DNA of 64,000 bases, taken from Candidatus Woesearchaeota archaeon. GTDB taxonomy: Archaea; Nanobdellota; Nanobdellia; CAZCWL01; CAZQAZ01. This document shows, in pieces, positions 10 through 38,200 of the stretch; position 1 is the first letter of the stretch; each line of letters starts with the position of its first letter. The position numbers were made by a program, and so were the translations under genes. Location: contig CAZQAZ010000002.1 in NCBI GenBank assembly GCA_964591855.1, forward strand, positions 36,851-100,850, in the 5' to 3' direction. The notes under the pieces were generated by a model that saw only the letters and a list, made by a program, of their open reading frames with translations, ran no database searches and was not told the DNA's origin.

Positions 10-2979
10 TTGAGTAGTCTTGGAAGTTTGACATGCGAGACTATAGAGAGATTAGAAAGAGAATCAGGTGTTATAAAGAATGTGGGTGAGGGTTACTTTG
101 TTAGTGAGGAATATAATTCTATGTATAATTACATTCCAGAGTATTGGGGAGAGGTTGATGATAACTTCAAAGGGACACTTGACTTGATGAAAGAAATATT
201 TGAGAAGGGGGTAGATTGGGAAGTAAGTCCAAAGCTAACTGTACCTAGTTACTTGGATTCAAGGTACCTTGAATACGAGGTTACAGCATATTCATTTGAT
301 CAAAATTTCTGTACGAATGGAAGACTAAGTAGTGAATCTAAAGGGTTATATACTCTAAAAGGGCAGTGTAATAGCAAGGATCTCCAGACCGATGAAACTT
401 GTAAGGACCCTTCAGTATATCCAAGCGAAGATGACGAATCCAAATATGCTGGCAGAGCCTTTAGAGATGATCTAAGTAACGATGATAATTACTTCTGTTC
501 AGACTTTACGTGTCATGCATGTTATAGAGGTCCAGAGGACATGTGGTTTAGCGGTGAGGCTAAAGAGTCGGAAAAGTTAAGTTTCGGACCATTCTGTCCT
601 ACAGGTATAAGCGTAAGCAATTCTTATGTTTATGGGATAAATTTAACTCTTAAGCCAGGAGCGTATCCAAAGGAGTGGACACCTGGTTTTGTGGTTTATA
701 TAGAACCTGACTATGATTTAGGTGTGAGTAAGGATGATTTAGAAAATGTACAAGTTAATATCTCAAATGTAGATCCCATAGGCAGGGAAGTAGACCACCC
801 CCTTTGTGAGGAAGTCACAGTATACGGTAAAGATGGCAATATTCTTACTGCAGATGAAGAGGGATGGTATACTGGTGCTAAAAAGGTTGTATGTAAACTA
901 GACTGGACGAAGCATGATGATCCAAGTGATGCGTTATATTACCTCGTATACGGTGGACCGACTAGATTAATCCCTGATAGCATTAATCTAACCTCCTACT
1001 TCCGTATAAAAATGAAAGAAGGAGACAACAGCAAAGCACATGTCAACTTCTTTATAGATATGGGTGTTGTTGGTAGTGATAGTGCATCAAGTCAAGGTGT
1101 GACCCCAGTTCTTCACGAGTATGATTGTTATAATGGGATAGACGATGATGGAGATGGAGCTATAGATCAAGATGACGATGATTGTAAGGAGGTTTGTAAT
1201 AATGGTGAAGACGATGACCACACAGTAAGCTCTAAAAAATTTGTAGAGATAATAAAAGGTTTTTATGAGGATCAAAATGATGAGTGTTACCAAGATTATT
1301 CCTGTGCTTTACAAAAAGCTATACAAAACGATCTTTTAACAGATACAGACCCCACTACTGGTGTTGATAGGGATGATTGGAAGTGTCACGAATATTCATG
1401 TACAGACGGGTCTGACGAGTATGATCCTAATAAATTCCCTGAGTTTTTCAACGACAACGATGGCAATGCGGATGGGAAAGATCCCGACTGTTGGGTTTAT
1501 GCAGACTTTTCTTGCTTAAGAGATTATGATCCAAGCAATCCATATACAACAAGCAAATTAAAAGATGGTGCTGAGGTGTTAAAACTTGTAGCAATAGTCA
1601 AAGTAAAAGATGAAGATGGGAATTGGCACTTTGTTAGAAGTGTTGATCTGGGTACAAGCGTTGTGGAGAACTACATAAACTTTTGTCCAACAAGCGAGAA
1701 TGATGAGGGACTCGTCTCCTTCTCCGGAGCTAATAATGGTTTGGTATCTATAGACTATCTTGGGACTGAGAGAAATTTCAGACCAATGCAGAGCCAGATC
1801 TCTCCTGGACTAGAAAAACCAATTGAAACTCCAGAAATACAGCCCATAAGAGGTCCATTTAGAATAGTACCTATAGAACCTGCTGACAAAGACATTGTTA
1901 CAGGAGATAGTGTTGAACTGAAGGCAGATGTTTTCAATGGGGATTCAAACTATCTTTATAGGTTTTACGTTAAGGACGTAACAAACCCTTCGGAGGGGGT
2001 GGAGACATGTGATGGAAGTGTGAAGAAATTGGAGGACAAACTAGAAGCTAGCTGTACATTTGAGGGCTTGAAAGAAGGACATGTATATGAATGGTATGTA
2101 GGAGCATATGATAAAGATGTGCCTGTGGGAACATTCTCCGATAAAAGTTTATTTAGAGTATCACCTGGTCCTGGAAGTATTTGCTACGATTACAAGGGAA
2201 ATGAGATTCCTTGTTCGTCCTTCGCAACTAAAAAGTATATAGATAGAAATCTTGTTACCCTTCCTTTAAGCTTCAAGTATGGTGCGTCAGTACACAAAAC
2301 GTATGAGTCAGAGGAACCACCAACGCCTAAGAACCCATCTTGCGGTGATTATCCAGTGGTTCAGTACTTCCCTGAAGAAGATAGGGCGAGTGATTTCTTA
2401 TTCGCATATAAGATACCTATTGAATCGTGTACAGGAAGCGACCAATGTAAGAAATGTACAATACGTTGTGGAATAGAGAGTGGAGGTATACTAAGTGAGA
2501 GTAAAGAAAGTGAGATCCTATCAAATGGTGAGGTTTGTAGTTTAGTTTGCTACGAAGAGAATGGTGATGAGGAATGCACAATATGGTGTAATCCATCTGA
2601 ACCGGAAGTGTCATGTTCTTGTAGTAAGAATGTGGCTAATGATCTTTATTATGATTACTACAACAAAGATGGCGTCCAAAGCAACGTTCGATGTAAAGAT
2701 GAGGAAGGCAAAGTTGAGTGTGTTGTGGATTACTTGGACTCGGATACAGGCGAAACAAAGAGGGTTTGCGATGTGATACACGATAAAACATGCGATGAAG
2801 AAAGGTGTGTATCTTGGGATTCAAATGATAATTGTGTGCCCGAGAGCTTTATTGCGTTTGAGAATAGAACTCTTGTTAATATGAGCTTTAAGTTCAAGTT
2901 TGATATAGATTACAATGCTTTGATCTCGCTTTACTCTAATGAAGATAGAGTACCAATGTTAATAGGGAGGGCAATATGA
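10..2979 (+). CDS. Large acidic cysteine-rich secreted protein; 5' end lies outside the window; contains a MopE/thrombospondin-like Ca-binding motif (CYNGIDDDGDGAIDQDDDDC) and an Ig/Fn3-like segment
   Basis: Open frame runs from the window edge for 989 aa. Very high Cys and Asp/Glu content. The CxDxDxDGxxDxDDDC motif was read directly. Its stop overlaps the next start (ATGA). Confidence 0.55.
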   Translation: MSSLGSLTCETIERLERESGVIKNVGEGYFVSEEYNSMYNYIPEYWGEVDDNFKGTLDLMKEIFEKGVDWEVSPKLTVPSYLDSRYLEYEVTAYSFDQNFCTNGRLSSESKGLYTLKGQCNSKDLQTDETCKDPSVYPSEDDESKYAGRAFRDDLSNDDNYFCSDFTCHACYRGPEDMWFSGEAKESEKLSFGPFCPTGISVSNSYVYGINLTLKPGAYPKEWTPGFVVYIEPDYDLGVSKDDLENVQVNISNVDPIGREVDHPLCEEVTVYGKDGNILTADEEGWYTGAKKVVCKLDWTKHDDPSDALYYLVYGGPTRLIPDSINLTSYFRIKMKEGDNSKAHVNFFIDMGVVGSDSASSQGVTPVLHEYDCYNGIDDDGDGAIDQDDDDCKEVCNNGEDDDHTVSSKKFVEIIKGFYEDQNDECYQDYSCALQKAIQNDLLTDTDPTTGVDRDDWKCHEYSCTDGSDEYDPNKFPEFFNDNDGNADGKDPDCWVYADFSCLRDYDPSNPYTTSKLKDGAEVLKLVAIVKVKDEDGNWHFVRSVDLGTSVVENYINFCPTSENDEGLVSFSGANNGLVSIDYLGTERNFRPMQSQISPGLEKPIETPEIQPIRGPFRIVPIEPADKDIVTGDSVELKADVFNGDSNYLYRFYVKDVTNPSEGVETCDGSVKKLEDKLEASCTFEGLKEGHVYEWYVGAYDKDVPVGTFSDKSLFRVSPGPGSICYDYKGNEIPCSSFATKKYIDRNLVTLPLSFKYGASVHKTYESEEPPTPKNPSCGDYPVVQYFPEEDRASDFLFAYKIPIESCTGSDQCKKCTIRCGIESGGILSESKESEILSNGEVCSLVCYEENGDEECTIWCNPSEPEVSCSCSKNVANDLYYDYYNKDGVQSNVRCKDEEGKVECVVDYLDSDTGETKRVCDVIHDKTCDEERCVSWDSNDNCVPESFIAFENRTLVNMSFKFKFDIDYNALISLYSNEDRVPMLIGRAI

Positions 2980-5078
2980 GAAAATTTGTTTATATTGCTG
3001 CTGTTGTATTGATTCTGCTAGTTGTACATCTGTCACTAGGGCTGCAGTACGACCAGAATACTAAGTGTGGAGATAAGGCCTTATCTAACAAGTTTGTTTT
3101 CTCTATTGATAACGGCTGTAAGCCATACGGTCAGAGTGGTAAGTATGTATTTACTTTTAGGGATGGGTTAGCAGCTAGAGGGGCATGTTTTGCAGAGGAT
3201 GGAAGATGTACAGAAAGCAGGTGTGATTTCTCACAACCAGATGGTTCCTTTTGTGCAGTAGGTGTTGGCATAGATAAAGGTGCTACGGAGTATGGTGCTA
3301 TTTGTAGTAGTAAAGATTATGCAGCATGGGACAACTCTTCAGGAGCATGCGTCGAATGTTCAGGAATATATGAGCTTGGAAAGTATGCCGACCAAAAAGA
3401 TATATACTTATCTCCAGAGAGTCCGCGTATAGACTCAAGTATAATGACTTTGCCAAAAGACACTCTTGGTGAGACAAGAAAGACAGTAGAGTCAGGTTGT
3501 GCAATTAGGATGGGATCTCCACTTGATGTTTATTGGTGCGATGAGTACTATCCCTTCTCTGAGGGCGAAGAATTAAACGAAGATCAAATTGACTTTTACC
3601 TTGATAAAGGAATATTTAGGCCAGATTCCTACAGGAAGGTTATTAAAAGTGAAGGTGATGACTTTGAAAAGTATGAATACTCGGATCCTATTCCCTCTAC
3701 AGAACTTCCACCGATAGCAACAGAGTGTTATACAAAGAATAAGTTTGGACAAGGGAAGTGTGCAGCTTACTGTGGTTATGATGGACAGTTGCATGCTATG
3801 GAATGTGTTGACGATAATGAGTGCCCAGACGCATTCCTCATCACCAAAGATCCAGACTCATCGGACTACTTCCCAAGATATGAAATAAGAAGATCTGTGA
3901 GGCACTGTACAAGGAAACTCCCATTTGAATGTGCAGTCGATTCCGAAGAGGATTTGGATGACTCAAGACAGGCATGTGCAGCTTACGGACTTCAATACAT
4001 TAAAGCAGGAGAGGAAAATGTAGGAGAGTATGTAGACACAGATACACTTGGATGTTGTGGAGATGATGTTTATGCAAATGGGAGACCAAAGGAATTTATA
4101 AGGTACAGGGTGGTTGTTGGAGGAAGGACAGATTATAGTGATGTAGCTTGTTGTGGAGGAGAGGATAGATGTGTATACAATGGCAAGTGTTACAAAGAAG
4201 GATCAGCTGTTACCATAGATGGAAGGAAAGCACATTGTTATAACGGTGTTTGGGTGGCAAGAGGCTTAGACTTATATTATGGCTATCCTTCATATGTAGA
4301 ACTTCCAAAGTGTGGAGACTATATATGTGATGTCTCCACAGGTGAGAATTGTTTCACCTGCCCAATAGACTGTAGCTTTGATAGAGAATTCTCAAGTGTG
4401 GAAGTGTTTGACAAGGAAGTAATGCACAAAGGAGATAAGGATTATTATCCAGACGAAGTTGGAAATTACCATAACAATTCCTTTGATCTTACATGGTCCG
4501 ATAAGATAGTATGCGCTCCGTACTCCAACTTAAAATATAAAAGTCTTTATGGCTGGACTAGAGAAAAGACTAATTTCAATAATTCAAGAGTTGTTGTAAA
4601 GTGCGATAGTGACGAAGGTAAGGGTTGCGACGATGAGTTATCCTGCGAAGGACTATTCTGGTTCAAGCAATCCTCTAATGCTTTCTGCGTTAAGGCTTCG
4701 CCTGGGGATAAGCTTGAAGTTGAGTTGGAGGATGAAAATAGTGGTGATCACAGCAAGATCTTCACTGTAGAAGAAATAGATCCAACAGCAACAGACAGGA
4801 CGAAACCATTTGGATGCTTAAACAAAGGGATAGTATGTTTTTATGTTGATGTACTTGGATTTGACTCCCATAATGTGGAAGAAGACTACGTAGATAAAAT
4901 TAAGAGTGTTAAATACATTCAGTATCCTAAATCAGTTAGATCAACATGTGAATATGATTCGGAATGTGAATCTCATAACTGTGCTAAGTTTGGAGTGACA
5001 GGTGTGTGCTGTCCTTATGGTTACAAATTCAACGGAGAGGAGTGTTACCTTCCAGAGCAGTTTGATTACGACTCTTAG
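2976..5078 (+). CDS. Cysteine-rich secreted/membrane-anchored protein (700 aa) with N-terminal hydrophobic signal/anchor
   Basis: ATG overlaps the upstream stop. N-terminus MRKFVYIAAVVLILLVV is hydrophobic. Many paired Cys (CCGG, CxxC). Confidence 0.6.
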   Translation: MRKFVYIAAVVLILLVVHLSLGLQYDQNTKCGDKALSNKFVFSIDNGCKPYGQSGKYVFTFRDGLAARGACFAEDGRCTESRCDFSQPDGSFCAVGVGIDKGATEYGAICSSKDYAAWDNSSGACVECSGIYELGKYADQKDIYLSPESPRIDSSIMTLPKDTLGETRKTVESGCAIRMGSPLDVYWCDEYYPFSEGEELNEDQIDFYLDKGIFRPDSYRKVIKSEGDDFEKYEYSDPIPSTELPPIATECYTKNKFGQGKCAAYCGYDGQLHAMECVDDNECPDAFLITKDPDSSDYFPRYEIRRSVRHCTRKLPFECAVDSEEDLDDSRQACAAYGLQYIKAGEENVGEYVDTDTLGCCGDDVYANGRPKEFIRYRVVVGGRTDYSDVACCGGEDRCVYNGKCYKEGSAVTIDGRKAHCYNGVWVARGLDLYYGYPSYVELPKCGDYICDVSTGENCFTCPIDCSFDREFSSVEVFDKEVMHKGDKDYYPDEVGNYHNNSFDLTWSDKIVCAPYSNLKYKSLYGWTREKTNFNNSRVVVKCDSDEGKGCDDELSCEGLFWFKQSSNAFCVKASPGDKLEVELEDENSGDHSKIFTVEEIDPTATDRTKPFGCLNKGIVCFYVDVLGFDSHNVEEDYVDKIKSVKYIQYPKSVRSTCEYDSECESHNCAKFGVTGVCCPYGYKFNGEECYLPEQFDYDS

Positions 5079-5080
5079 GA

Positions 5081-6325
5081 GTGAATAAAATGGTATCAAG
5101 TAAAGCTGTAGTTTTTGTTGTCTCGACGATAATAGTAGTGATAACCTTGTTTTACTTTGCTTTACCTGTTACATCAATTCTTCATGCTTCGGCAGTCGAA
5201 CTGAACATGAAATCTTACTATGCTTTAACCGATGCTATAAAAGAAGCAAACACAAAAGGCATGGGAATAACAGATAAAATCTACCTTCAGAACAATTATT
5301 TCATAGTCTTTTTCAGGAATAATGAAGTTCTTGATAAACTTGTTAAAGGGGAGATATCGGGGTTTGAGGTCAAAGAGTATGTTTTTGATGGGAGTAGGTC
5401 AGGTTATATGTATTACAGGTCTGGTGTAGATAAGAAAGTGTATGAAGTGGACAGTAAGGCGTTTTATGGTGAAGACGAATTGAACAAGTGCGATATGGAT
5501 GAAAACTGCGTATGTTTGGTGAATTTAGATTACTATGATCCCAGCAACATTAACACGTGGATATACCAAATAGGTACTGAGCAGGGCGGGTTTGGTTGTT
5601 TAGATAGAGTATCCATCCAAGATACAACTATGAATAAATGGGAGACAAATACAGAACCGTACTTTTATGAGGTGAAGCTTTTCAAGCCACTAGGATGTTC
5701 TATCCCACAGAATAATATGAAGGCACCAATTCTGGAGTACAGAGATGGTGAAGGGAAAACACACAGGTTCTTTACGGATTTCTCTACGCTTGCCTTCATG
5801 GATCAATTTATATCCAAAGTTGGGAAGAACTTTACCTTGACTTTCGTTGAGTGTAAGCCTATGAAGGAATTATGTTCATGTGATATCTGTAGTCTATATG
5901 CAGATGAATACTCATGTACAGGAACAGGCTACGAGGAAGGTAGCCACTTTGGATGTGCATGGGATAGTGAGAAAGGAATGTGCTACAATGAGAAAAATTA
6001 TGAAAACTCAACCAACGACTGTTCGTTATGGATAATAAGTGATAAGGTGCGTCAGATATATTCTATCACCGAAAGGTCTAAGTTTGATTACATAATCTTT
6101 AAGAAAGAAGGCTGTGCTTTGCAGTGGTTTGATTCTTCGAAGAGGCCAATTGGCACAGACTCTATCTTTTATGAAGATTATGGAGGAGAGCTATTTGTAG
6201 AGGGGAAGGGCGAGGATAAGGATAAGATTGGAGCATGTGAGCCATGTTTCCAGACTATACCTGTGGAGCAATGTGGGGATCAACAACCTTGCTGTAAAGA
6301 GGAGGCAAAGTGTTCTCCCATATAG
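5081..6325 (+). CDS. Cysteine-rich surface protein (414 aa) with class III-like signal (SSKA/VVFVVSTIIVVITLF) and a C-terminal CCK...C module
   Basis: Third gene of the translationally coupled operon. N-terminal basic stretch followed by a hydrophobic helix. C-terminus is CEPCFQTIPVEQCGDQQPCCKEEAKC. Confidence 0.55.
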   Translation: MNKMVSSKAVVFVVSTIIVVITLFYFALPVTSILHASAVELNMKSYYALTDAIKEANTKGMGITDKIYLQNNYFIVFFRNNEVLDKLVKGEISGFEVKEYVFDGSRSGYMYYRSGVDKKVYEVDSKAFYGEDELNKCDMDENCVCLVNLDYYDPSNINTWIYQIGTEQGGFGCLDRVSIQDTTMNKWETNTEPYFYEVKLFKPLGCSIPQNNMKAPILEYRDGEGKTHRFFTDFSTLAFMDQFISKVGKNFTLTFVECKPMKELCSCDICSLYADEYSCTGTGYEEGSHFGCAWDSEKGMCYNEKNYENSTNDCSLWIISDKVRQIYSITERSKFDYIIFKKEGCALQWFDSSKRPIGTDSIFYEDYGGELFVEGKGEDKDKIGACEPCFQTIPVEQCGDQQPCCKEEAKCSPI

Positions 6326-6664: not shown

Positions 6665-7338
6665 AAATGGCAATCAAAGCAAACGATTTTTTAATTATTA
6701 ATTTTTCTGCTAAACTTAAGTCCACTGGAGAGGTCTTTGATAGCACTTTCCCAGACGAGGCTAAAAAGCTTGGAATAGAGAATCCAAAACCTGTTAAGGT
6801 CATCGTTGGGCAGGAAATGATAGTTAAAGGTTTAGATGAAAGCTTTTTAGGAAGGGAAGAAGGAGAGGAGTACACTATAGAAGTTCCACCTGAGAAGGCA
6901 TTTGGTAAGAGAGATCCAAGCCTTGTAAAGCTTATACCTATGAAGGAATTTAAAAAACAAGGAATAACTCCTTATCCAGGCATGCAGCTAAGGATAGATA
7001 ACATTCCTGCAAGAGTCATAACTGTTTCTTCAGGTAGGGTTGTTATAGATTTTAACTTTCCTCTTGCAGGCAAGGACATAATTTATAAAGTTAAAATAGA
7101 AAAGGTTATAAAGGACCCAAAAGAGAAGATAGATACCCTTCTTGAGATGTTTAACATACAGGCTGAAAAAGAATATAAAGATAAGAGTGTTATAATAAGG
7201 TTAGAAAAAGACCTTCCAGAAAGTTTAAAAAATGAGATTTCAAAGAAAATTCAAGAGTTTACTGGTTACGAAGCTAAGTTTGAGGTGAAGTCAGATGGAG
7301 TCGATAATAAGGAACGCAAAGTTGAGAATGGAGAATGA
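6661..7338 (+). CDS. FKBP-type peptidyl-prolyl cis-trans isomerase (long archaeal FKBP with IF domain)
   Basis: FKBP fold motifs read in [17 protein letters not shown]...[19 protein letters not shown]. Confidence 0.75.
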
Positions 7339-8434
7339 AGAGAAAGGAGCTTTGGCTGTAAAAACTTTGAGATCAACAGACAAAACAAAGAACGTTGATG
7401 CTGAATTAGAGAAGTTACTTGAGAACAGGAGAGCTGCAATAAAAGTTATAGGTGTGGGTGGAGCAGGTAATAACTCAATAACAAGAATGTCGGAGGTTGG
7501 AATTAAAGGTGCAGAGTTGATAGCAGTTAACACAGATGCTGCTGACTTGTTATGTACACAGTGTGATGTTAAGATACTAATAGGAAGGGAGATCTCACAG
7601 GGACTTGGTGCAGGTGCAGATCCAAAGGTTGGTAGAGAAGCTGCTAAAGAACAAGAGCAAGAATTAAAGAAAGCTCTTAAGGGAGCAGATTTAGTTTTCA
7701 TAACAGCAGGTTTGGGTGGAGGTACTGGTTCTGGAGCAGCACCAATTATAGCAGAGCTAGCTAAGAAACAAGGCATATTAACAGTTGCCGTGGTTACTTT
7801 ACCTTTCTCAATGGAAGGTAAAGTAAGAATGGAGAATGCAATGGAAGCATTAGAAAGATTAGAAGCTGTCACGGATACAATAATAGTTATACCAAATGAT
7901 AAACTTCTTGAGATAGCTCCTGACTTACCATTACATGTATCATTCAAAGTAGCAGATGAGATCTTAACAAACGCTGTTAAAGGAATCACAGAGTTAATAA
8001 CAAAGAGCGGATTGATAAACTTAGACTTTGCGGACATTAAGGCGGTGATGAAGGAAGGAGGAGTAGCAATGATTGGTGTTGGAGAAGACGATTCAGAGAA
8101 CAGAGCACAGATGGCAGTTGAGAAAGCAATTAACAACCCATTGTTGGATGTTGATATAGCAGGAGCATCAGGTGCATTAATTAATGTTACTGGTGGAACA
8201 AACATGACTCTTGACGAAGCAAAGAAAGTAGTTGAAACCATATCTAAGATGTTAAGTGAGGATGCAAAGATAATATGGGGAGCACAAATTGAACCAGACA
8301 TGAAAAATAGCATAAGAGCTATGTTAATAGTAACTGGTGTTACTAGCCCACAGATCTATGGTAAAGACAAACTAATACTTGAAGAGAGACACAGCGAATA
8401 CGAGGATGAATTAGGAATTGAGTACTTAAAGTAA
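7295..8434 (+). CDS. ftsZ: Cell division GTPase FtsZ
   Basis: GVGGAGNN and GLGGGTGSGAAP tubulin signature motifs. Confidence 0.9.
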   Translation: MESIIRNAKLRMENEEKGALAVKTLRSTDKTKNVDAELEKLLENRRAAIKVIGVGGAGNNSITRMSEVGIKGAELIAVNTDAADLLCTQCDVKILIGREISQGLGAGADPKVGREAAKEQEQELKKALKGADLVFITAGLGGGTGSGAAPIIAELAKKQGILTVAVVTLPFSMEGKVRMENAMEALERLEAVTDTIIVIPNDKLLEIAPDLPLHVSFKVADEILTNAVKGITELITKSGLINLDFADIKAVMKEGGVAMIGVGEDDSENRAQMAVEKAINNPLLDVDIAGASGALINVTGGTNMTLDEAKKVVETISKMLSEDAKIIWGAQIEPDMKNSIRAMLIVTGVTSPQIYGKDKLILEERHSEYEDELGIEYLK

Positions 8435-13774: not shown

Positions 13775-13796
13775 ACTTTAGTTTTTAACTTTGAAT

Positions 13797-13868
13797 GGGC
13801 TTGTGGTCTAGGGGTATGACGTCGCCCTTACACGGCGAAGGTCGCCGGTTCGAATCCGGCCAAGCCCA
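13797..13868 (+). tRNA. tRNA-Val (anticodon TAC)
   Basis: Cloverleaf folded by hand. Acceptor GGGCTTG/CAAGCCC, anticodon loop CTTACAC, T-arm GCCGG-TTCGAAT-CCGGC. No encoded CCA. Confidence 0.85.
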
Positions 13869-14399
13869 TTACTTCTTTTTACCCCACATCTCATAGAAGA
13901 TAAGATCATGTAGGCCTCTTCTTATAGGTATTCTAGCACTTTTGGAGTAGTGGCCTATTGTCACTAGACCAATAACTTTCACATGCTTTGGTATGCCAAG
14001 TATAGTTCTTACTTTCTCAGAGTCAAAGGCACCAACCCAACAAGAACCAAGTCCCAATTCTGTAGCCATTAATAACATGTTTTCTATAGCTGCCCCACCA
14101 TCGCACAATGCATATCTATATGCCATCTCGCCATACTTTGCCTCTAGAATCTCAAGGTTGGCACAAACAGCTATAATCACAGGAGCTTTGACTATCCAGT
14201 CCTGACCAAATGCTGCTTGGGCAAGTCTTTCTTTAATGAACTTTTTCCTTACTATAATGTATCTAATCTCTTGTGAATTACCAGCTGTTGGAGCCCATCT
14301 CCCGGCATTTATGATCTTAAGAACATCGTCCTCAGAAACAGGCCTGTCATCATACTCTCTTATGGACCTTCTATTTATTACAAGGTTCTCGAAGTTCAT
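13869..14399 (-). CDS. Nitroreductase-family NAD(P)H oxidoreductase
   Basis: RRSIREYDDRPVSEDDVLKIINAGRWAPTAGNSQ nitroreductase fold signature. Confidence 0.75.
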   Translation of the reverse strand: MNFENLVINRRSIREYDDRPVSEDDVLKIINAGRWAPTAGNSQEIRYIIVRKKFIKERLAQAAFGQDWIVKAPVIIAVCANLEILEAKYGEMAYRYALCDGGAAIENMLLMATELGLGSCWVGAFDSEKVRTILGIPKHVKVIGLVTIGHYSKSARIPIRRGLHDLIFYEMWGKKK

Positions 14400-14454
14400 A
14401 AACTTTATAAATAAATGTTAGTAATAAACCTTTCTGATACAACTCTTGAATAGT

Positions 14455-14470
14455 AAAAACATTTATAAAT
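14455..14470 (+). promoter_or_regulatory. BRE/TATA promoter (AAAAACA-TTTATAAAT) for the TrmB-like regulator gene
   Basis: TATA about 31 nt upstream of the ATG at 14501, consistent with a near-leaderless transcript. Confidence 0.5.
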
Positions 14471-14500
14471 GTGAAACTCAAACAATAATTGTGGTGTAAG

Positions 14501-15277
14501 ATGGTACTAAGCGAAGAGACGTTGGCAAAATTAAGGAGAATGTTTGGATTGAATCTTTATGAAGTAAGGATCTGGACAGCTTTGCTATCTAGAGGTAAGA
14601 GTACAGCTGGAGAATTATCTGAGATAGCAAATGTTCCAAGATCAAGAACCTATGATATTCTAGAATCCTTAGAGAAGAAAGGTTTTGTGATGATGAAGAT
14701 GGGTAAGCCAATTCAGTATTTAGCTATACCACCAAACGAGGTTATAGAAAGAGCGAAGGCAAATCTTGAGAAGGAAAAGAAGATGAAAGAGAAGATGTTA
14801 GATGAGCTAAAGAAGTCAAAGGAAATGAGTGAACTTCAATTGTTGTTCAAGCAAGGAATAGAGTATATCGACCCACTTGATCTTTCTGGTGTAGTTAGAG
14901 GTAGAGAAAACATATATGCAAGATTGGAAGCCATGATAAACAATTCCAAAAAGCATGTTAACATAGTAGTTCCTCCATCAGAGGTTAAGGACAAGTTTGA
15001 AGCAGTGAAGAAGGCCATTGAGAAGGCAAAGAAAAGAGGTGTGAAGGTTAATATCATAACTAAATCCACGCCGGAGAATAAAGACTTAATTCAAGCTGTT
15101 GCAAAGATGGCCAACATAAAAGAAAAAGATTTGAATGCAAGAATAGCAATAGCCGACAACAAACAAGTTTTATTCATGCTCTTGCCTCATGAAGAAGTGC
15201 ATCCAAAGTACGATGTTGGTGTTTGGGTGCAGTCTGAATTGTTTGCAAATGCTTTGAACAAGATGATAGGCCAGTAA
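14501..15277 (+). CDS. TrmB-family winged-helix transcriptional regulator
   Basis: N-terminal TrmB-type HTH (YEVRIWTALLSRGKSTAGELSEIANVPRSRTYDILESLEKKGFV) followed by a coiled coil. Start moved to the ATG downstream of the promoter; the track start at 14489 is TTG. Confidence 0.7.
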   Translation: MVLSEETLAKLRRMFGLNLYEVRIWTALLSRGKSTAGELSEIANVPRSRTYDILESLEKKGFVMMKMGKPIQYLAIPPNEVIERAKANLEKEKKMKEKMLDELKKSKEMSELQLLFKQGIEYIDPLDLSGVVRGRENIYARLEAMINNSKKHVNIVVPPSEVKDKFEAVKKAIEKAKKRGVKVNIITKSTPENKDLIQAVAKMANIKEKDLNARIAIADNKQVLFMLLPHEEVHPKYDVGVWVQSELFANALNKMIGQ

Positions 15278-15317
15278 TTTCAATAAGTTTTTATATCGAA
15301 TTCTTTGTTCTGTTCTT

Positions 15318-16859
15318 ATGACCAATGAAGAGCAAAGAGAGTTAGCTATAAAAGAGATAATAGATAATTTAGATAGTGTTAACTCTAAAGAAGAATTAGA
15401 AAAGTTGAAGTATAAGGTTTGTAGGAAGTACAAGGTTCCATTGATGCTCAATGCAGATATTCTATCCAGGATCAAAAACCCGTCAGATAAAGTAAAGGAG
15501 CTGCTGACCACGAAACCAATTAGAAGTTTATCTGGTGTTAGTGTCGTTGCTGTGATGACAAAACCATTCCCATGTCCCCATGGTAAATGTGTGATGTGTC
15601 CACAAGGTAAGAATGCCCCGCAAAGTTATACTGGAAAAGAACCTGCCACAATGAGAGCCATTAGTGCTAATTATGATCCCACACTCCAAGTTAAGAATAG
15701 GATAAGACAACTTGAATTAACTGGGCATCCAACTGATAAAATAGAAGTAATTGTTATGGGAGGAACTTTTACTTCTATGCCAAGAGATTACACCACGAAT
15801 TTTGTTAAGGGCATCTTTGATGGTCTGAATGGAGTAAAGGCTAGAACTCTTGAAGAAGCACACATGCTAAATGAGGAATCTAAGCACAGATGCGTTGGAT
15901 TAACTATAGAGACAAGACCTGATTATTGCTTTGAGGACGACATAAGGTATATCCTTAGCCTTGGTGCTACAAGAGTAGAGATTGGTGTGCAGTCTACTTT
16001 TGATGATGTGCTTAAGAAGATAAAGAGAGGACATACTGTGCAGGATTCCATCAAAGCAACACAACTACTGAAGGACTCTTCTTATAAAATAAACTATCAC
16101 ATGATGACGGGTCTCCCAGGATCTAACCCAAAGAAAGACCTTGAGTCATTTAAAAAAATATTTCAAGATCAAAGATTCAAGCCAGATATGATTAAGATAT
16201 ATCCTACTATGGTCATAAAAGGTACGGAGTTGTATGATATGTGGAAGAGGGGAGAATACGAGCCTTACTCTCAAGAAACTCTGATTAACTTATTGGCTGA
16301 CATAAAAAGAATAACTCCAAGATGGGTTAGAATAATGAGGATACAAAGAGACATTCCTCTCAATCAGGCTGAAGCAGGAGTTTTAAAGGGAAATATAAGA
16401 GAAATCTTAAAGACAAAAGTGAAGTGTAATTGTATAAGGTGTAGAGAAGTAGGACATAAGGATCCAAAGTTAGTTAAGGGTCTAAAGCCAAAACTTTTCG
16501 TGGAGGAGTATAGAGCATCCAACTCGAAAGAGTTTTTCATATCCTTCGAAAGCGAAGATCAAGAAGTACTCTTCGGCTTCATAAGGTTAAGAATACCTTA
16601 CAAGCCATTCATGGAGCAAATAACTAAGACTACTGGCTTAATTAGAGAGCTTCACGTGTATGGTAAAGAAGCAAGTTTAGGAAAGGAAGGGTATGTGCAA
16701 CACAAGGGCCTTGGTAGAAAACTTCTAGAGGAAGCGGAGTCCATAGCCAAGTCTGAAGGTATGGACAAGATGGTGATAATAAGTGGTGTTGGAGTTAGGC
16801 CATACTTTAAAAAGTTTGGCTATAGAAGAGATGGTCCATACATGTCAAAATCATTATAA
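15318..16859 (+). CDS. elp3: Elp3-like radical SAM/GNAT tRNA uridine-34 modification enzyme
   Basis: CPHGKCVMC (CX4CX2C) radical-SAM cluster, a C-terminal GNAT domain, and the FPCPHGKC motif typical of Elp3. Confidence 0.9.
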   Translation: MTNEEQRELAIKEIIDNLDSVNSKEELEKLKYKVCRKYKVPLMLNADILSRIKNPSDKVKELLTTKPIRSLSGVSVVAVMTKPFPCPHGKCVMCPQGKNAPQSYTGKEPATMRAISANYDPTLQVKNRIRQLELTGHPTDKIEVIVMGGTFTSMPRDYTTNFVKGIFDGLNGVKARTLEEAHMLNEESKHRCVGLTIETRPDYCFEDDIRYILSLGATRVEIGVQSTFDDVLKKIKRGHTVQDSIKATQLLKDSSYKINYHMMTGLPGSNPKKDLESFKKIFQDQRFKPDMIKIYPTMVIKGTELYDMWKRGEYEPYSQETLINLLADIKRITPRWVRIMRIQRDIPLNQAEAGVLKGNIREILKTKVKCNCIRCREVGHKDPKLVKGLKPKLFVEEYRASNSKEFFISFESEDQEVLFGFIRLRIPYKPFMEQITKTTGLIRELHVYGKEASLGKEGYVQHKGLGRKLLEEAESIAKSEGMDKMVIISGVGVRPYFKKFGYRRDGPYMSKSL

Positions 16860-16871
16860 ACAGGAACAGAC

Positions 16872-17987
16872 TTGTTATATTTGGTGATGGAGATGAAGAT
16901 AAAGTTCTCAAGGAAACCTGTTGTCTGCTACGAAGATGAATCTGTGTTTAAGGCAATATCTAGAATGGAGAGAAATAAAGTTAAGGCCTTACCTGTTGTG
17001 GACAAGAAGGGAAGGCTTAAGGGAATTTTCTCAGAGTACAGGATTTTATATCAGCTCAAAAATCCAAATGAGTACACTAAGGTTAAGTCGGCTATGCAAA
17101 GTGCAACTTCTTTAGAAAAAGATAAAGATGAACTTCAAGCCCTTAATCTAATGGTACAGACAGGATTTGAAACTATACCAGTAGTTGTGAAGGACAAAGT
17201 TGTAGGTATAATCTCAGACTATGATATGCTTAAGAAGTTCAAGGATTCACCTTTGTTTAAGCACATGCTTGTAACAGACATAATGTACAAGGCTGTGAAG
17301 GTTAAGCACGATGACCCAATATCAAAAGCTAGAGACCTAATGAAGAAAAACAGGGTGGACTCCCTCCCTGTTTATAAGAGAGATGATTTCATAGGCGTAG
17401 CTGTGGCCCGCAGGTTGCTTGAGAAGTTCTTAAGCATACCAATAACAAAAGAAGCCAGGAAGGGCGAGAGGGTTGGAATAAAACTTAAAAGATTTTCTGC
17501 ACCAGTTGAGACTTTAATTGAGAGATCAATAAAGCCAATATCCGATACAGACACATTAAGTGAAGGTCTAGCAAAACTCTTGAAGTATAATTTATCATCA
17601 CTTCCTATCCTTAAAGGAAGTGAAGTGGTTGGCTTTTTAAGAAGAATGGACATAATGAAGCTAATTAGTAACAAGCTTAAATCTAAAGACATATTCGTTA
17701 ACGTATCCGGTAAAGTTAGTCTCGAAGAGGCTAGAGCTATAATCGAACAGGTAAAGGATAGAATTAAAAAAGTGAATTACTTGTTTAAGAACACAAGAAG
17801 GGTGGACATTTACATAAAGAGGCCATTAATCAAACATTACTTCGTAGCACATATGTACCTTGATAACCCAAGATTACAGGTTAAGTACGAAGGAAAAGAT
17901 CTTATGAAGACCATACACGACACTATGGACAAGGTTGAGGAGATACTAGAAAAAGAGCTAAGGATTAAAAAGTCTAGAAAGCATTAG
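16872..17987 (+). CDS. Four-CBS-domain protein fused to a C-terminal HPF/YfiA (S30AE)-like ribosome hibernation domain
   Basis: Four CBS repeats across aa 10-265. The C-terminal 95 aa (IFVNVSGKVSLEEARAIIEQVKDRIKK...MYLDNPRLQVKYEGKDLMKTIHDTMDKVEEILEKELRIKKSRKH) aligns by eye with bacterial HPF/RaiA. Confidence 0.55.
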   Translation: MLYLVMEMKIKFSRKPVVCYEDESVFKAISRMERNKVKALPVVDKKGRLKGIFSEYRILYQLKNPNEYTKVKSAMQSATSLEKDKDELQALNLMVQTGFETIPVVVKDKVVGIISDYDMLKKFKDSPLFKHMLVTDIMYKAVKVKHDDPISKARDLMKKNRVDSLPVYKRDDFIGVAVARRLLEKFLSIPITKEARKGERVGIKLKRFSAPVETLIERSIKPISDTDTLSEGLAKLLKYNLSSLPILKGSEVVGFLRRMDIMKLISNKLKSKDIFVNVSGKVSLEEARAIIEQVKDRIKKVNYLFKNTRRVDIYIKRPLIKHYFVAHMYLDNPRLQVKYEGKDLMKTIHDTMDKVEEILEKELRIKKSRKH

Positions 17988-17996
17988 TTTTAGGGA

Positions 17997-18069
17997 AGCC
18001 CCGTCGTCTAGTGGTCAAGGATGCGGGCCTTTGGAGCCTGAGACCCCGGTTCGAATCCGGGCGGGGCTA
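17997..18069 (+). tRNA. tRNA-Gln (anticodon TTG)
   Basis: Acceptor AGCCCCG/CGGGGCT. Anticodon stem CGGGC/GCCTG with loop CTTTGGA. T-arm CCCGG-TTCGAAT-CCGGG. The D-arm pairing is imperfect in the hand fold. Confidence 0.75.
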
Positions 18070-18106
18070 TCATAATTTTTATAAAAGTTCTTATGGTGTT
18101 GAGAAC

Positions 18107-18946
18107 ATGGACTTCGATTCTAATAGAGGAGAAGAGCTTGTCAGGATAGTAATGGATGCTTACTCTTCTAGAGATCCAAAGGAATACTTGGGAAACTTGC
18201 TCCTCCCAGGCGTAGAAACAAATAGCAGAGAGCAAGCTAATTTCTTGTTCTTTGTTGCTATGTTATCCCCCTTCAACAATTCAAATACTTTAGTCAAGAG
18301 AGCAAAGCGCATCTACTCAAAACATAGCGAGATTTTTGACCCAGATAGTGTGGTAGAAGCTATAGAGAAGGATAGAAGTCTCTTTATAGCAACCCTGAGG
18401 GATTTGGAGAATAGGGAAGATTATATAGAAGCGTGGTGTAACAACTCACGAAGGCTGAAGGAGAAGTACAGCTCAGATGCTAGGAAGATATTCGAAACAT
18501 CATCTTACAAGCAGGCTATGGACAACATAACATCCTTCGATAGGTTTGGTGAGAAAACTGGTTCTATGCTTTTAGGATGGTACATCACTCTTGGATTGGT
18601 CGAAGATAATTGGGATGATATATACAATTATCCTACACCTTTAGACACACAAGTTATGAAGTTACTTGTTGGAAGAGAGGTTGTGAGCTTTGAAGGTGAG
18701 GTTGATTACGAGCCTTTGTTTAAGAGAGTTAGACAGGAATTCTCAAGTTTACTTCATGAGTTGGGAGTTAATCCATACTTGTTCCACGACGCAGCTTGGG
18801 ATTATGTTACAGGAGTGTGTAGATATTGTGAAAGGGCGCAGCACCCAGAGTGTTTATTTGGAGAACCTTGTAGGGTAGAATTAGTCACCTCAGATACGAA
18901 ACGTAGGGGGAAAGTTCGAATTACAAAGAAGGAATTTTTCACTTAA
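18107..18946 (+). CDS. Hypothetical protein with a possible HhH-GPD-like motif (PLDTQVMKLLVGRE) and a C-terminal 4-Cys cluster (CX2CX6CX5C)
   Basis: Start moved to the first ATG downstream of the tRNA (MDFDSNRGEEL). A TATA box (TTTTTATAAAAG) lies about 20 nt upstream. The function call is weak. Confidence 0.45.
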   Translation: MDFDSNRGEELVRIVMDAYSSRDPKEYLGNLLLPGVETNSREQANFLFFVAMLSPFNNSNTLVKRAKRIYSKHSEIFDPDSVVEAIEKDRSLFIATLRDLENREDYIEAWCNNSRRLKEKYSSDARKIFETSSYKQAMDNITSFDRFGEKTGSMLLGWYITLGLVEDNWDDIYNYPTPLDTQVMKLLVGREVVSFEGEVDYEPLFKRVRQEFSSLLHELGVNPYLFHDAAWDYVTGVCRYCERAQHPECLFGEPCRVELVTSDTKRRGKVRITKKEFFT

Positions 18947-18950
18947 GAAG

Positions 18951-19703
18951 TTAGATGACTTTCTCTAGCTCCTTCAAGGATTCTATCTTCTTCTTGATGG
19001 CGTTTATTTCATTGAGAATATCCCTCTTGATTCTCTCCACGTCAATAACCTGCATTGGAGTTCCACAGTAGGGACAGAGATAATTAGTTTCCATAGCTTT
19101 AAGCATGCTCATTTGTACTCCACACTCATTGCAAGAGAAGAATTCCTTTCCTTCTTGCTTTAAGTGGTACTTCTTCTCGAGAACCTTAATATCCGAGTTT
19201 AGCTCGTTAATAACGTATTTTATAATGTTCTTGGGATTTATTTCCCAAGTGAAGATGTACCATCCCTTTCTTTTGTCTCTCCTTCTTGAGAAAGATACTA
19301 TCCCTCTGGTTTGTAGCTTGTAAAGTATGGACCTCACCTTATTGACTTTGAGGTTCATTAGTGAAGCTAGCTTGAACTCTGAGATTTTTCTCTTCTCTAA
19401 AAGTATCTTTAGAAGTGTAAATCCGGTCTCATCTAAGAAAGCACTTAATTTCTCATTTATGATCTTGTTCCTTAGTATGAGTTGGTTCTTCTGAGCTTTG
19501 GTTAATCTCTTTGACTTCCTTTTCGTTGTTTTTGTTGGTTTCCCCGCACTTTTCTTCTTTGTGGTTTTAGACTTAGCTTTCCCCGCAACTCTTTTTTTAC
19601 TTCTGGTTATCCTTCCCTTGTGCTTAGTTCTCTTAGAGCGTGTAGAAGAAGCCTTTTTCCTACTAGACTTTGTTGCCATCGTATTAAGTTTACATACAGT
19701 CAT
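18951..19703 (-). CDS. tfe: Transcription factor E (TFIIE-alpha homolog) with a lysine-rich N-terminal extension
   Basis: Winged helix (ISEFKLASLMNLKVNKVRSILYKLQTRGIV) plus zinc ribbon (CNECG...CPYCG). The N-terminal ~75 aa are K/R/S/T-rich. Confidence 0.7.
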   Translation of the reverse strand: MTVCKLNTMATKSSRKKASSTRSKRTKHKGRITRSKKRVAGKAKSKTTKKKSAGKPTKTTKRKSKRLTKAQKNQLILRNKIINEKLSAFLDETGFTLLKILLEKRKISEFKLASLMNLKVNKVRSILYKLQTRGIVSFSRRRDKRKGWYIFTWEINPKNIIKYVINELNSDIKVLEKKYHLKQEGKEFFSCNECGVQMSMLKAMETNYLCPYCGTPMQVIDVERIKRDILNEINAIKKKIESLKELEKVI

Positions 19704-24501: not shown

Positions 24502-25185
24502 ATGGTAGACATTGACAAAGCTGTTATTGCTAGGTTAAAGAAACAAGGTAAAACTTTTGAGGTCCTAGTTGACTGCGAGAAGGCTATTGATCTTAGACAT
24601 GGTAAGGACGTTGATGTAAGAGAAGTTCTCGCAGTAGAGGATGTATTTACAGACGCTAAGAAAGGGTTAAGAGCAGGCGACCTCAAAAGTGTGTTTGGGA
24701 CGGAAGACGTCCTAGAAATAGCAAAGGAAATAATAAAACATGGTGACATTCAGCTTACACAAGAGTACAGAAAGAAACTTTTAGAACAGAAAGTGAACAG
24801 AATAATCAACACAATAACAACGAATGCATACGACCCACGCACAAATGCACCAATACCTCCGGAGAGAATAAGACTTGCTATGGAACAAGCTAAGGTTCAT
24901 ATAGACTTATACAAGCCAGATAAAGAAGTGATGGACGAAGTTGTGGAAGCTTTAAAGAAGATCATGCCAATCTCATTTGAAAAAAGAAAGTTAAGAGTGA
25001 TAGTACCTGCGCAGTATGCTATGAAAGCTTACTCTTTAATAAACAAGTATAAAGTATCTGAGAAATGGTTGGCTAATGGTGATTTAGAATGTTACTTAGA
25101 AGTCTTGGGTGGTCTTGTCCCCGAGCTTTATGATAAACTTAACAAGTTAACACATGGAAACGTTGATATAAAAGAGGTGAATTGA
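24502..25185 (+). CDS. Ribosome maturation factor SBDS/Sdo1
   Basis: FEVLVDCEKAIDLRHGKDVDVREVLAVEDVF motif. Superoperon position. Confidence 0.85.
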   Translation: MVDIDKAVIARLKKQGKTFEVLVDCEKAIDLRHGKDVDVREVLAVEDVFTDAKKGLRAGDLKSVFGTEDVLEIAKEIIKHGDIQLTQEYRKKLLEQKVNRIINTITTNAYDPRTNAPIPPERIRLAMEQAKVHIDLYKPDKEVMDEVVEALKKIMPISFEKRKLRVIVPAQYAMKAYSLINKYKVSEKWLANGDLECYLEVLGGLVPELYDKLNKLTHGNVDIKEVN

Positions 25186-35259: not shown

Positions 35260-38200
35260 TTAACACTGTAGCCATGAAGCTATGCAGTTGTATTCTGGGA
35301 GCTTACAGCAGTAGCCGCTTGCCTTACACTTCTCTAGGTTGTCTTGATTTGTTTGGAAGGTTGGCCCTATCTTGTTAAGCTCACAAACTGTAGGGGTTGG
35401 ACTTTCACCCTCTTCGAAGTTCCACACGTCACTTCCACAGCTATTCAAGCTCCCACAAGTGACAGGCTCTCCACCATCTTTCAAACAAGCCTCCACACAA
35501 GCTTTTCCAAAATCCGTTGAATCCCTGCTTATGTAACAATCACCCAAACTGCAGGTTAGCACTTGATCACAATATACAGTTGTTCCTTCGACATTGAAAC
35601 TTAAGCTTGCAAAGTCTGAACTATTAAAGTAACACACCCCATTGATGTTAACAAACTCTTTGTTTGTGTCATTCATACAAGCTTCCTCACACATCCTCTG
35701 AATCTCAGGATGTGTGGATATTATCTTCTCCACATTTGTATGTTTGATTAATGTGTTACAATCGTACACGTTATTGGATCCAAGATCGTTAGGGAGTATA
35801 TCACCTTTTGTATCCAGTAGACACACATTTCCTTCCATCTTGTTATTGTTGAAAGTCACAGGAGTATCAAACACAAACCCATATACATTGTTCACGAAGT
35901 TGTTACTGTCAAACACACCACTGCATTCGCTACATAGCACACCATAGTAATTAGAGTAGAATGTATTACCTACCACGTTTACATTTCCACCTATAGCACT
36001 TATGCCAGAGTCTGAGTTCGAGAATGAAGATGATTTGATATTTCCAACACCAGAGACTCTGACATAATTTAACCCAGTTATATCGGAGTCTTCGATTGTT
36101 ATATTACCATAAGATTCAATCTTAAAGTCCTTATCTGCATAATGGATTTTAACCCCCTTCAGCGTGAGGTTTCCATAGTTCACCAAACTACATGGAGATG
36201 TACAGTTGATGTACAAGTTAACATTCTCTAAAGTAAGATTTCCATGCACAGTTGTATTCTTAAGGAGCACAACACCTAAGTTCTTAACATTACAGTTGTC
36301 GGATTTCTCAACTATCCAATCTTTGTACGTTGAAGGATAGCACCTATTCTCTTCGAGAACAGCAATAATCTTTTTTGGAGAATCAAATCTAACTTTAAGT
36401 GTGGTGTAGTTATAATGTCTCCAGTAATTTAAGACCTGAGCACCTGTTACGTTGACTGTGTAATCTCCCACATCAATTAAGTTAAAGTCCTTGTCGAGAT
36501 AATACGCCTGTCCACACCATGTTTTAACTGGCGAAGAAATGTATCCTGCATCACATTCTAAAATCCTTGTGGTTGGATAGGGTCTTATCTTATTTCCATT
36601 TGTGTCTTTAATTTCTATCTCTATTATGCTTGTTGATGCAATTAAACCTTTAGTATTGCTATCAGGCAAGAGTGTGTTTTTCGAACTCAAGCTATTAAAG
36701 AAAGCTTCGATATCACTCCCAGATATGTCTGAGTTGACGAGCATTATTAAGAATGAACCTCCTTTTAAAGTGTTCCCTTCTATGTCAACATTGTTTTCCG
36801 AAGTAAGTCTTATAGGATTGTTATAGTACTTGTAGTCCTTTACGGTTACAGAGTTGTGTTTAATGGAACCTGAGGAGTTGGATACAGAGATCCATCCAAC
36901 ATTCATATCATTTGATGTTAAGTTTATTGTAGAGTTTGTTATTGCTAAACCAATTGATTGATCTACATCATTGTTGCTAAACTCCACCGTTGAGTTGTAA
37001 GAGTAGAGAGGATAGACTACACCAACTATGTTGCTCTCATTAATCTTAGCTTTTGAGTTAAGCACATAAAATCCATAGTATGTTTTGTAACTTCTACCGC
37101 CAGAGAATGTGAAGTTGGTGTTTGATATGTTCACACCCTTTTCATCGGATATGTAAACACCGCCATACATTCTCTTATATGGACCCGACATGAATCTATT
37201 CTTATAGAATGTGACATTCTTGTTATTTATGAGGTAGACCTCAAATATGTAACTTGATGTATTTGTGTGGAAGGTGTTATTTGTTATGTTGATGTATGAG
37301 TTTGTTGAATAGATCCCCCTCGCTCCGAAAAATGTGGAGTTGGAGACAGTTATGTTAGAGCCTCTTGCGAAGAGTCCATAATAACTCTTGTCCACCACAT
37401 TTTTAAGTGTCAAGTTAGACTCAACCGAAACAACACTTACTCCCTTGTTGTTGAAGAAAGCGTCCTTAATTTCCCCACTTGAGTTGAAGTAGTAAAGAAG
37501 CTTATTGACCTTACCAAAATCTCCAAATGATCCATAAAAGTCTTGCTTGGTGTTGAGATTGTATAGAAGTATCTTAACATTGTCTGCTTTGTTACCCCTT
37601 CCATATACTTTGTTGGTGTTGTGGATTCCTAACTTATAGTCGTATGAGAACGAGTTACCGAAGAATAATGCTTCTCCGTAATTGTAGACGAAGGAATATG
37701 CATGATCCCATGTGTTACTAATAAACCTTGTCCCTACAGCATAGTTTTTAACAGGGATGTATGCGTTTGTGAATACATTCTTTAATAGAACAGTGGGCTC
37801 CACTATGTTTAAAGCCCTCCTTCCAAAGAAAGTGTTTCCAACGAGTTTAATCTTCTCGCCCACATCAAAGTCTTTGTCTAGTTCTATGTTATTCCCTTTT
37901 AGAACGATATGATTACTAAGTGACAGTTGGCTGGTTTTGATACTGTTTCCTCTTATCACAGCCTTACTTGTTCTCACATCTAACTCTGAGTTGTGAAGTA
38001 TTGATTTTTGGATGTTCAATGAGGATCCTTCTAAAGCAGTTATGTATGCCTTACTAACAAACGAGCTGGCTATTAGTATTTGACCACCCTGGTTAGCTTG
38101 TATGGTCTTTGAGTTTCCATTAAGGTAAGAGTTTATTAAAACAAGCGCTCCACCGTCCTTCACCACAATAGGATACTTTAAGTCTATGTCTTTACCATAA

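Follow-up and report, generated by a model that had tools for sequence, protein, structure and literature searches.

The gene considered here lies on the forward strand of the window (the whole stretch of DNA that was analysed, 64,000 nucleotides) and encodes a strongly basic protein (pI 9.8, net charge +30) in which a tetrad of CBS motifs is followed by a C-terminal domain resembling the ribosome hibernation factors HPF and RaiA. It is preceded by the gene for Elp3 and followed by a gene for tRNA-Gln(UUG) (Table 1). The open reading frame on which the sequence-only reading was based is present on this strand, and the final 98 residues of its translation are those that had been quoted there.

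Table 1. Features of the locus and the CBS motifs of the encoded protein
Feature	Position	Strand	Details
Elp3	15318..16859	+	tRNA U34 carboxymethyl modification, radical SAM/GNAT enzyme; TIGR01211 ELP3, 702 bits
HibA/AHA-like gene	16893..17987	+	364 aa counted from ATG 16893
Alternative start ATG	16887	+	366 aa; start used in ENA gene call P0001
Alternative start TTG	16872	+	371 aa; mechanical ORF listing 16872..17987
N-terminal CBS tetrad	16908..17681	+	four CBS motifs, two Bateman modules; Pfam, AlphaFold2, Foldseek
CBS1 motif			GIFSEYR; Arg, like most family members
CBS2 motif			GIISDYD; intact
CBS3 motif			GVAVARR; lacks both the Ser/Thr and the Asp; Asp in the other families compared
CBS4 motif			GFLRRMD; Asp present, Arg replaces Ser/Thr
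Extended loop after CBS3 (PTC loop, loop 3)	17427..17507	+	FLSIPITKEARKGERVGIKLKRFSAPV; 27 residues; alignment to P. abyssi HibA
C-terminal HPF-like domain	17694..17984	+	putative binder of the decoding centre and mRNA channel on the 30S subunit, by homology
tRNA-Gln(UUG)	17997..18069	+	ARAGORN; Rfam, 61.4 bits

Translation probably begins at ATG 16893 (MKIKF...), or else at ATG 16887, rather than at the TTG with which the mechanical listing opens, because the residue matching ATG 16893 is the N-terminus in three homologues (P0002, MKISF; P0003, MNITF; the product of L021, MKISF) and GGTGATGGAG precedes this codon, at 16883-16892. In ENA the same gene is called as P0001, whose product differs from the 366-aa version in one residue (Val for Ile).

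The tRNA-Gln(UUG) gene was recovered by both ARAGORN and Rfam 10 nt past the stop codon, immediately downstream, where the sequence-only reading had placed it. On the other side 33 nt separate the end of Elp3 from ATG 16893, and the two genes are probably co-transcribed. A scan for sigma-70 promoters and intrinsic terminators, whose models are not applicable to archaea, gave fewer promoter-like matches than shuffled sequence. The same order of Elp3, CBS-HPF gene and tRNA-Gln(UUG) is found at two other loci, L001 (54% identity) and L005 (52%). At a third, L021, Elp3 is directly upstream of the homologue and the contig ends before the position of the tRNA. A more distant homologue (29% identity to the window protein) is encoded on a 273-kb JGI contig, L020, where Elp3 is two genes away and tRNA-Gln(UUG) adjoins the homologue. 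The block on this contig corresponds to that of the window: tRNA-Val(UAC), nitroreductase, TrmB, Elp3, the two extra genes, the homologue, tRNA-Gln(UUG) and, further along, TFE. Synteny extends over the entire neighbourhood, so the adjacency of the three genes is most simply explained by lineage synteny rather than by a functional link.

Judging from the genes of the window (G+C about 38%), the host is a DPANN archaeon, since the neighbouring genes are archaeal and the nearest named homologues of its uL1 are found in Nanoarchaeota (60% identity), Woesearchaeota, Nanoarchaeia and Pacearchaeota. The archaeal neighbours include genes encoding TFE alpha, TrmB-family regulators, Elp3, apgM, FtsZ, uL1 and uL10/P0, together with the proteasome alpha subunit, SBDS, RNase P p30, archaeosine TGT and RNase J. 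Elp3, used as the query in a genome scan, retrieved distant archaea only, at 43-53% identity.

In the first search the CBS-HPF protein itself had just three close relatives (100%, 54% and 52% identity), the next best match being at 26%. No relative was found when the GTDB species representatives were searched with the single window protein.

Architecture and predicted fold

The four CBS motifs claimed in the sequence-only reading are recognised by Pfam, which assigns CBS to four stretches of the protein (E 2.4e-36). In the AlphaFold2 model (pLDDT 84 for the whole protein) they form four beta-alpha-beta-beta-alpha units, with pLDDT of about 85-93 outside the loop described below. Foldseek with the full-length model returned, at the top, a Sri chain (9znf_4, from the Methanosarcina acetivorans 70S-SriA-SriB structure), MJ1225, AMPK gamma and Dri. 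The closest structure to the tetrad is 9znf_4 (E 7e-21), and the TM-scores of the CBS-tetrad matches, 0.55-0.60 of the query, correspond to the whole N-terminal module. The full-length search yields CBS tetrads only, because the CBS module dominates the model and the fold library is older than the HibA entries. When only the sequence is considered, the tetrad stands no nearer to HibA than to the Sri proteins or MJ1225.

For the C-terminal domain, the sequence-only reading had suggested a scan against the Pfam family PF02482 (Ribosomal_S30AE). The isolated domain does give a near full-length match (profile positions 2-83 of 88, 21.7 bits, E 3.5e-4), but this falls short of the gathering score of 23.7, and within the whole protein the score is 18.5-18.6 bits. 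The NCBIfam models TIGR00741 (yfiA) and NF007780, the HPF equivalog, also match the C-terminus weakly, with E about 0.002. A profile that combined the window protein with eight homologues found 14 matches among all PDB sequences, the best being an E. coli-type HPF (E 2.5e-6), and every one of the 14 is HPF, RaiA/YfiA/protein Y or P. abyssi HibA. A second profile, limited to the clade (the window protein and two close relatives), placed E. coli HPF first (E 0.0035), with its positions 6-92 running nearly without gaps along HPF residues 4-89. HMMER in this way reproduces, position for position, the alignment with E. coli HPF that had been made by eye; the HPF sequence quoted for it differs from the PDB sequence in a few residues, and the alignment is unaffected.

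[quoted passage not shown] In a Foldseek search of the PDB, 35 consecutive chains of HPF, RaiA, pY or protein Y (TM 0.50-0.76) precede any unrelated protein. Profile searches, the AlphaFold2 model and Foldseek all lead to the HPF family, and none of the outcomes that would have spoken against the sequence-only reading (no profile hit, another fold, an unrelated CBS-associated family) was found.

Homology to the archaeal hibernation factor HibA

Proteins of this architecture have been described recently in archaea. Cryo-EM of ribosomes from stressed Pyrococcus abyssi led to the discovery of HibA (Madru et al., Nat Commun 2026, PMC13324472; preprint October 2025). It consists of four CBS domains (residues 1-269) and a C-terminal HPF/RaiA-like domain (270-392), is encoded by PAB0961 in P. 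abyssi and TK1186 in Thermococcus, and was reported in about 47% of archaeal genomes (PMC13324472). The C-terminal domain occupies the 30S mRNA/tRNA channel, and the CBS module takes up the tRNA space on the 50S subunit in three conformations, one of which has a long loop (residues 190-207) inside the peptidyl-transferase centre (PTC). HibA inhibits in vitro translation, and when hibA is deleted, Thermococcus barophilus has lower 70S pools and recovers later from stationary phase (PMC13324472). The Haloferax volcanii orthologue HVO_2384 was independently described as AHA (Souza et al., bioRxiv 2026, PMC12934967): its cryo-EM structure contains two AMP molecules between CBS3 and CBS4 and has loop 3 inserted in the PTC, a deletion phenotype was reported, and 3,160 homologues were counted in 17 archaeal phyla, with AHA-like proteins also in Patescibacteria. 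The same family has moreover been named Hib (bioRxiv Oct 2025), and its CBS-only relatives SriA-D, ARC and Dri are likewise ribosome hibernation factors, Sri and ARC having been described at about the same time. The statement of the sequence-only reading that S30AE factors are essentially bacterial or plastid is out of date. That reading arrived at a real and important family, in which the HPF-based hibernation factor of Archaea is joined to a CBS sensor resembling AMPK gamma, but the concept of a CBS-HPF fusion was already published as HibA/AHA in 2025-2026, and the locus adds no new concept.

The window protein alone detects P. abyssi HibA (9sr9_H, 392 aa) with a phmmer E of 1.3e-12, and the alignment joins residues 24-330 of the 366-residue query to 27-337 of HibA, from CBS1 into the HPF domain. 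With a family profile (A1, made from the window protein and 14 homologues) the match to 9sr9_H becomes E 2e-61, covers profile positions 2-364 against 5-375 and stands well ahead of CBS-only proteins; the second-best match is PDB 9L96, a 406-aa CBS protein. The HibA-ribosome structures are PDB 9SR9-9SRF and 9T7H. The fusion is also widespread. Run exhaustively with HMMER against 1.84 billion cluster representatives, the profile of the C-terminal domain gave 594 proteins at E<=0.001, and the best 150 of these are mostly 360-400 aa long, with the HPF-like domain at the C-terminus. Among these 150 (the window protein and 149 other listed matches) CBS domains are present in 119 and PF02482 is matched at E<=0.01 in 103, which answers the call of the sequence-only reading for further CBS-S30AE fusions. 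Sequence, profile and fold evidence agree on an archaeal protein in which a CBS tetrad is fused to an HPF/YfiA-like domain, and we consider it very likely that the gene is a divergent DPANN-archaeal orthologue of HibA (AHA, Hib).

The protein might instead be a generic CBS regulator, for instance a transcription factor akin to HhpR or else a metabolic sensor, with a C-terminal dimerisation or ligand domain that merely resembles HPF and has no role at the ribosome. The NCBIfam model of HhpR (NF053603) does match the CBS part with E 4.4e-13, but its 49 bits are far under the cut-off of 520, and HhpR has no HPF domain. At the C-terminus there are weak partial matches to ZT_dimer (E 0.0014, 25 residues) and to a SHOCT-like family; these, together with one to RNA polymerase subunit L, are short, involve helices only and were rejected. 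The significant profile and fold matches of this region, in contrast, are all to the HPF family and cover the whole domain. Moreover, the structurally proven ribosome-bound HibA is matched end to end by profile A1, which includes the window protein, and over most of its length by the window protein alone, as described above. We regard a generic regulator as barely conceivable.

Orthology to HibA is also consistent with the loop that follows CBS3, a loop whose role was described for both characterised proteins (PMC13324472, PMC12934967). In the window protein this loop, FLSIPITKEARKGERVGIKLKRFSAPV, aligns with the PTC loop of P. abyssi HibA, FIK-PR-FKAQYGELAGEKIPPFS, and the first glycine of its GExxG motif (G193) is invariant in a 15-sequence family alignment. 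It is the sole disordered stretch of the AlphaFold2 model, with pLDDT <50 at residues 185-199.

Ribosome binding, silencing and nucleotide sensing by the window protein would be expected from the characterised orthologues. By homology, the basic C-terminal HPF-like domain would be lodged in the decoding centre and mRNA channel of the small subunit, where it would overlap the anticodon stems of A- and P-site tRNAs as well as the mRNA. The CBS tetrad at the N-terminus, inferred to be the large-subunit-binding module, would lie as a disk in the space normally held by tRNAs, with the loop after CBS3 reaching into the PTC. Because a single polypeptide would hold both subunits, the idle 70S ribosome could be kept assembled, translationally silent and shielded until the cells grow again. 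Binding or release may be tuned by adenine nucleotides located between CBS3 and CBS4.

The CBS motifs of the window protein were compared with the canonical ribose-phosphate motif, G-h-h-[ST]-x-x-D (Table 1). The ribose-binding Asp of CBS3 is replaced by Arg or Lys across the small clade of the window protein, whereas the other family members have Asp in both CBS3 and CBS4. In AMPK gamma, site 2, which has no such Asp, is empty. By analogy with this site, the absence of the CBS3 Asp probably means that one nucleotide site of the CBS3/CBS4 pair is lost, and adenylate sensing may be reduced in the window protein given the Arg of CBS3. The sequence-only reading had proposed that the fusion couples energy charge directly to ribosome silencing. 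P. abyssi HibA binds AMP with a Kd of 12 uM, but its ribosome binding was unchanged by AMP or ATP, and for this reason such a coupling is still hypothetical, also for the characterised orthologues.

A compact HPF domain in a DPANN clade

The HPF domain of the window protein differs from that of most archaeal homologues in two shortened regions. Its beta2-beta3 region is 14 residues long, the length seen in E. coli HPF, whereas 105 of the 132 archaeal representatives compared have 19 there, and the beta1-alpha1 region has 15 against the usual 17 of the same set, so that both archaeal-specific insertions are absent. These insertions contact uS19 and uS12 in P. abyssi HibA; nevertheless a P. abyssi mutant without both of them still inhibited in vitro translation (PMC13324472), and their absence is therefore no argument against function or membership in the family. 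In addition, the tryptophan which precedes the last helix in 130 of the 132 representatives is a Lys in the window protein. Across the clade this column contains Lys, Met or Thr, preceded by a Gly, and in E. coli HPF it contains Gln. A compact beta2-beta3 region is also seen in two other archaeal representatives, both of which have the Trp.

In sequence the window domain is very divergent from the C-termini of other archaeal HibA proteins. A hidden Markov model of the archaeal domain, built from the 132 representatives without the clade members (window, P0002, P0003), scores the window domain at 19.3 bits and E. coli HPF at 20.8 bits. Set beside the 21.7 bits of the largely bacterial Pfam model, this makes the window domain roughly equidistant from both groups. 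PF02482 is matched better by many archaeal HibA C-termini (best E 2.8e-8) than by the window domain.

These features raise the question of a separate origin, in which a bacterial-type HPF, for example from co-occurring bacteria or CPR, would have been joined to, or exchanged into, a CBS tetrad of the SriA/HibA type in an event separate from the canonical fusion, with the same function. The nearly gapless alignment to E. coli HPF, the beta2-beta3 region of bacterial length and the missing Trp, likewise absent from E. coli HPF, would all fit such an event, as would the archaeal model scoring no better than that of Pfam. Of 149 archaeal representatives from other clades, moreover, only one has a pairwise score that is not below the 18.0 bits obtained with E. 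coli HPF, and AHA-like proteins are present in Patescibacteria (PMC12934967). On the other hand, the domain order, the PTC loop and the CBS tetrad are those of HibA. The two compact representatives that retain the Trp indicate that loop loss occurs within the archaeal family, and many archaeal members match PF02482 better than the window domain does. Fast evolution of DPANN genomes could have erased archaeal signatures, and the HPF domain has fewer than 100 informative positions. A separate origin is in our view quite improbable. Because of the two other compact representatives and the better Pfam matches of many archaeal members, fast divergence inside the archaeal family is the simpler reading of the compact domain.

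We are also inclined to consider rather unlikely that the clade (the window protein, P0002, P0003 and the L020 protein) constitutes a distinct HibA variant, with an HPF domain of bacterial type, lacking insertions and Trp, that is either ancestral and older than the insertions or was re-acquired or swapped from bacteria or CPR, and with one of the two AMP sites lost. The gene of such a variant might also share a single expression unit with Elp3 and tRNA-Gln(UUG). If it existed, it would imply a bacterial-like mode of binding to the reduced ribosomes of DPANN archaea and a regulation unlike that of canonical HibA. As a divergent member of the family, the locus could help to define the minimal ribosome-binding determinants of HibA, and could bear on whether the archaeal HPF goes back to LUCA or to an early transfer from bacteria.

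Comparison with known systems

Among known systems the window protein is most similar to HibA/AHA, with which it shares the order of the modules (CBS tetrad first, HPF/RaiA-like domain at the C-terminus), a comparable length (364 against 392 aa), the long loop after CBS3 with its GExxG-type motif, an archaeal host and sequence homology detectable over the full length. The relationship is a distant one, as seen in the phmmer E of 1.3e-12 to P. abyssi HibA and in identities of at most 26% to homologues outside the clade in the first search. Differences from P. abyssi HibA are found in both modules: the HPF domain has neither the insertions that contact uS19 and uS12 nor the near-invariant Trp, and in the CBS tetrad Arg takes the place of the ribose-binding Asp in CBS3 and of the Ser/Thr in CBS4.

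The C-terminal domain by itself resembles the short bacterial HPF/RaiA (YfiA) and plastid pY proteins (PF02482, TIGR00741) in fold, length and basic surface, and aligns nearly without gaps to E. coli HPF. However, bacterial HPF is either a standalone protein of about 95-115 aa or a long form with a dimerisation domain, whereas the window domain is the C-terminal third of a protein, fused to a CBS tetrad of 260 aa. Moreover, as a single sequence it stays below the Pfam gathering score, and its host is an archaeon.

A third group comprises the CBS proteins SriA-D and ARC-A,P of Methanosarcina and Methanolobus and Dri of Thermoproteota, which resemble the window protein in the long loop after CBS3 and have a ribosome-associated role. 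Sri/ARC and Dri lack an HPF domain, and Dri contains two CBS tetrads, whereas the window protein possesses the HPF domain by which HibA/AHA is defined.

The Elp3-HibA-tRNA-Gln gene block

In this DPANN lineage a gene block is kept across the window and four contigs of relatives that bear a HibA homologue (L020, L001, L005 and L021), with the order tRNA-Val(UAC), nitroreductase (minus strand), TrmB, Elp3, zero to two genes, the HibA-like gene, tRNA-Gln(UUG) and, further downstream, TFE (minus strand). In four contigs, the window's included, tRNA-Gln begins 10-38 nt downstream of the HibA stop codon. Elp3 modifies U34 of tRNAs, and tRNA-Gln(UUG) has a U34. The adjacency of the three genes may simply be inherited synteny.

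Coordinates of the features discussed
Feature	Location	Strand	Remark
Gene block	window 13796-19703; L020 628-9521		
A/T-rich element	window 17964-17972		within final HibA codons
ORF after tRNA-Gln	window 18011-18946		as listed
TTTATAAA	window about 18078-18085		
Four large ORFs	window 10-6325 and 35260-39273		
340-aa ORF	window 7291-8313	-	antisense to FtsZ gene
FtsZ gene	window 7295-8434	+	Tubulin and FtsZ_C domains
aSBDS gene	window 24502-25185		all three SBDS domains; after proteasome alpha

Sequences flanking tRNA-Gln

The A/T-rich ATTAAAAAG at the end of the HibA gene precedes the 5' end of tRNA-Gln by approximately 33 nt and could be a TATA-like promoter of the tRNA embedded in coding sequence. 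Its counterpart is conserved in L005 (ATTAAAAAA) and conserved in part in L001 (ATCAAGAAA); these same nucleotides code for a conserved I-K-K, and the conservation could reflect protein constraint only.

The listed start of the following ORF falls within the tRNA-Gln gene, and the plausible start is the ATG at 18107 (MDFDSNRGEE...). TTTATAAA is found roughly 25 nt upstream of this ATG, a spacing that would resemble that of leaderless archaeal mRNAs. A Pfam/NCBIfam scan gave no family match for the resulting 280-aa product.

Other ORFs of the window

None of the four large ORFs (989, 700 and 414 aa on the plus strand, 1337 aa on the minus strand) matched a Pfam or NCBIfam family at the cut-offs applied. 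The 340-aa ORF is presumably spurious, since the domains of the product encoded opposite identify FtsZ as the real gene.

Relation to solved and archaeal factors

The second-best match of the family profile (the window protein and 14 homologues) among PDB sequences was 9l96 chain a (E 4.3e-52), a 406-aa protein from outside the window, labelled "CBS domain-containing protein" and found in four PDB entries. It probably represents a further HibA/AHA orthologue of solved structure; a literature search on entry 9l96 found no paper naming it.

Proteasome alpha and aSBDS seem to belong to the usual archaeal proteasome/exosome cluster. On idle ribosomes of P. abyssi, HibA was reported to be accompanied by aSBDS as a second factor (PMC13324472).
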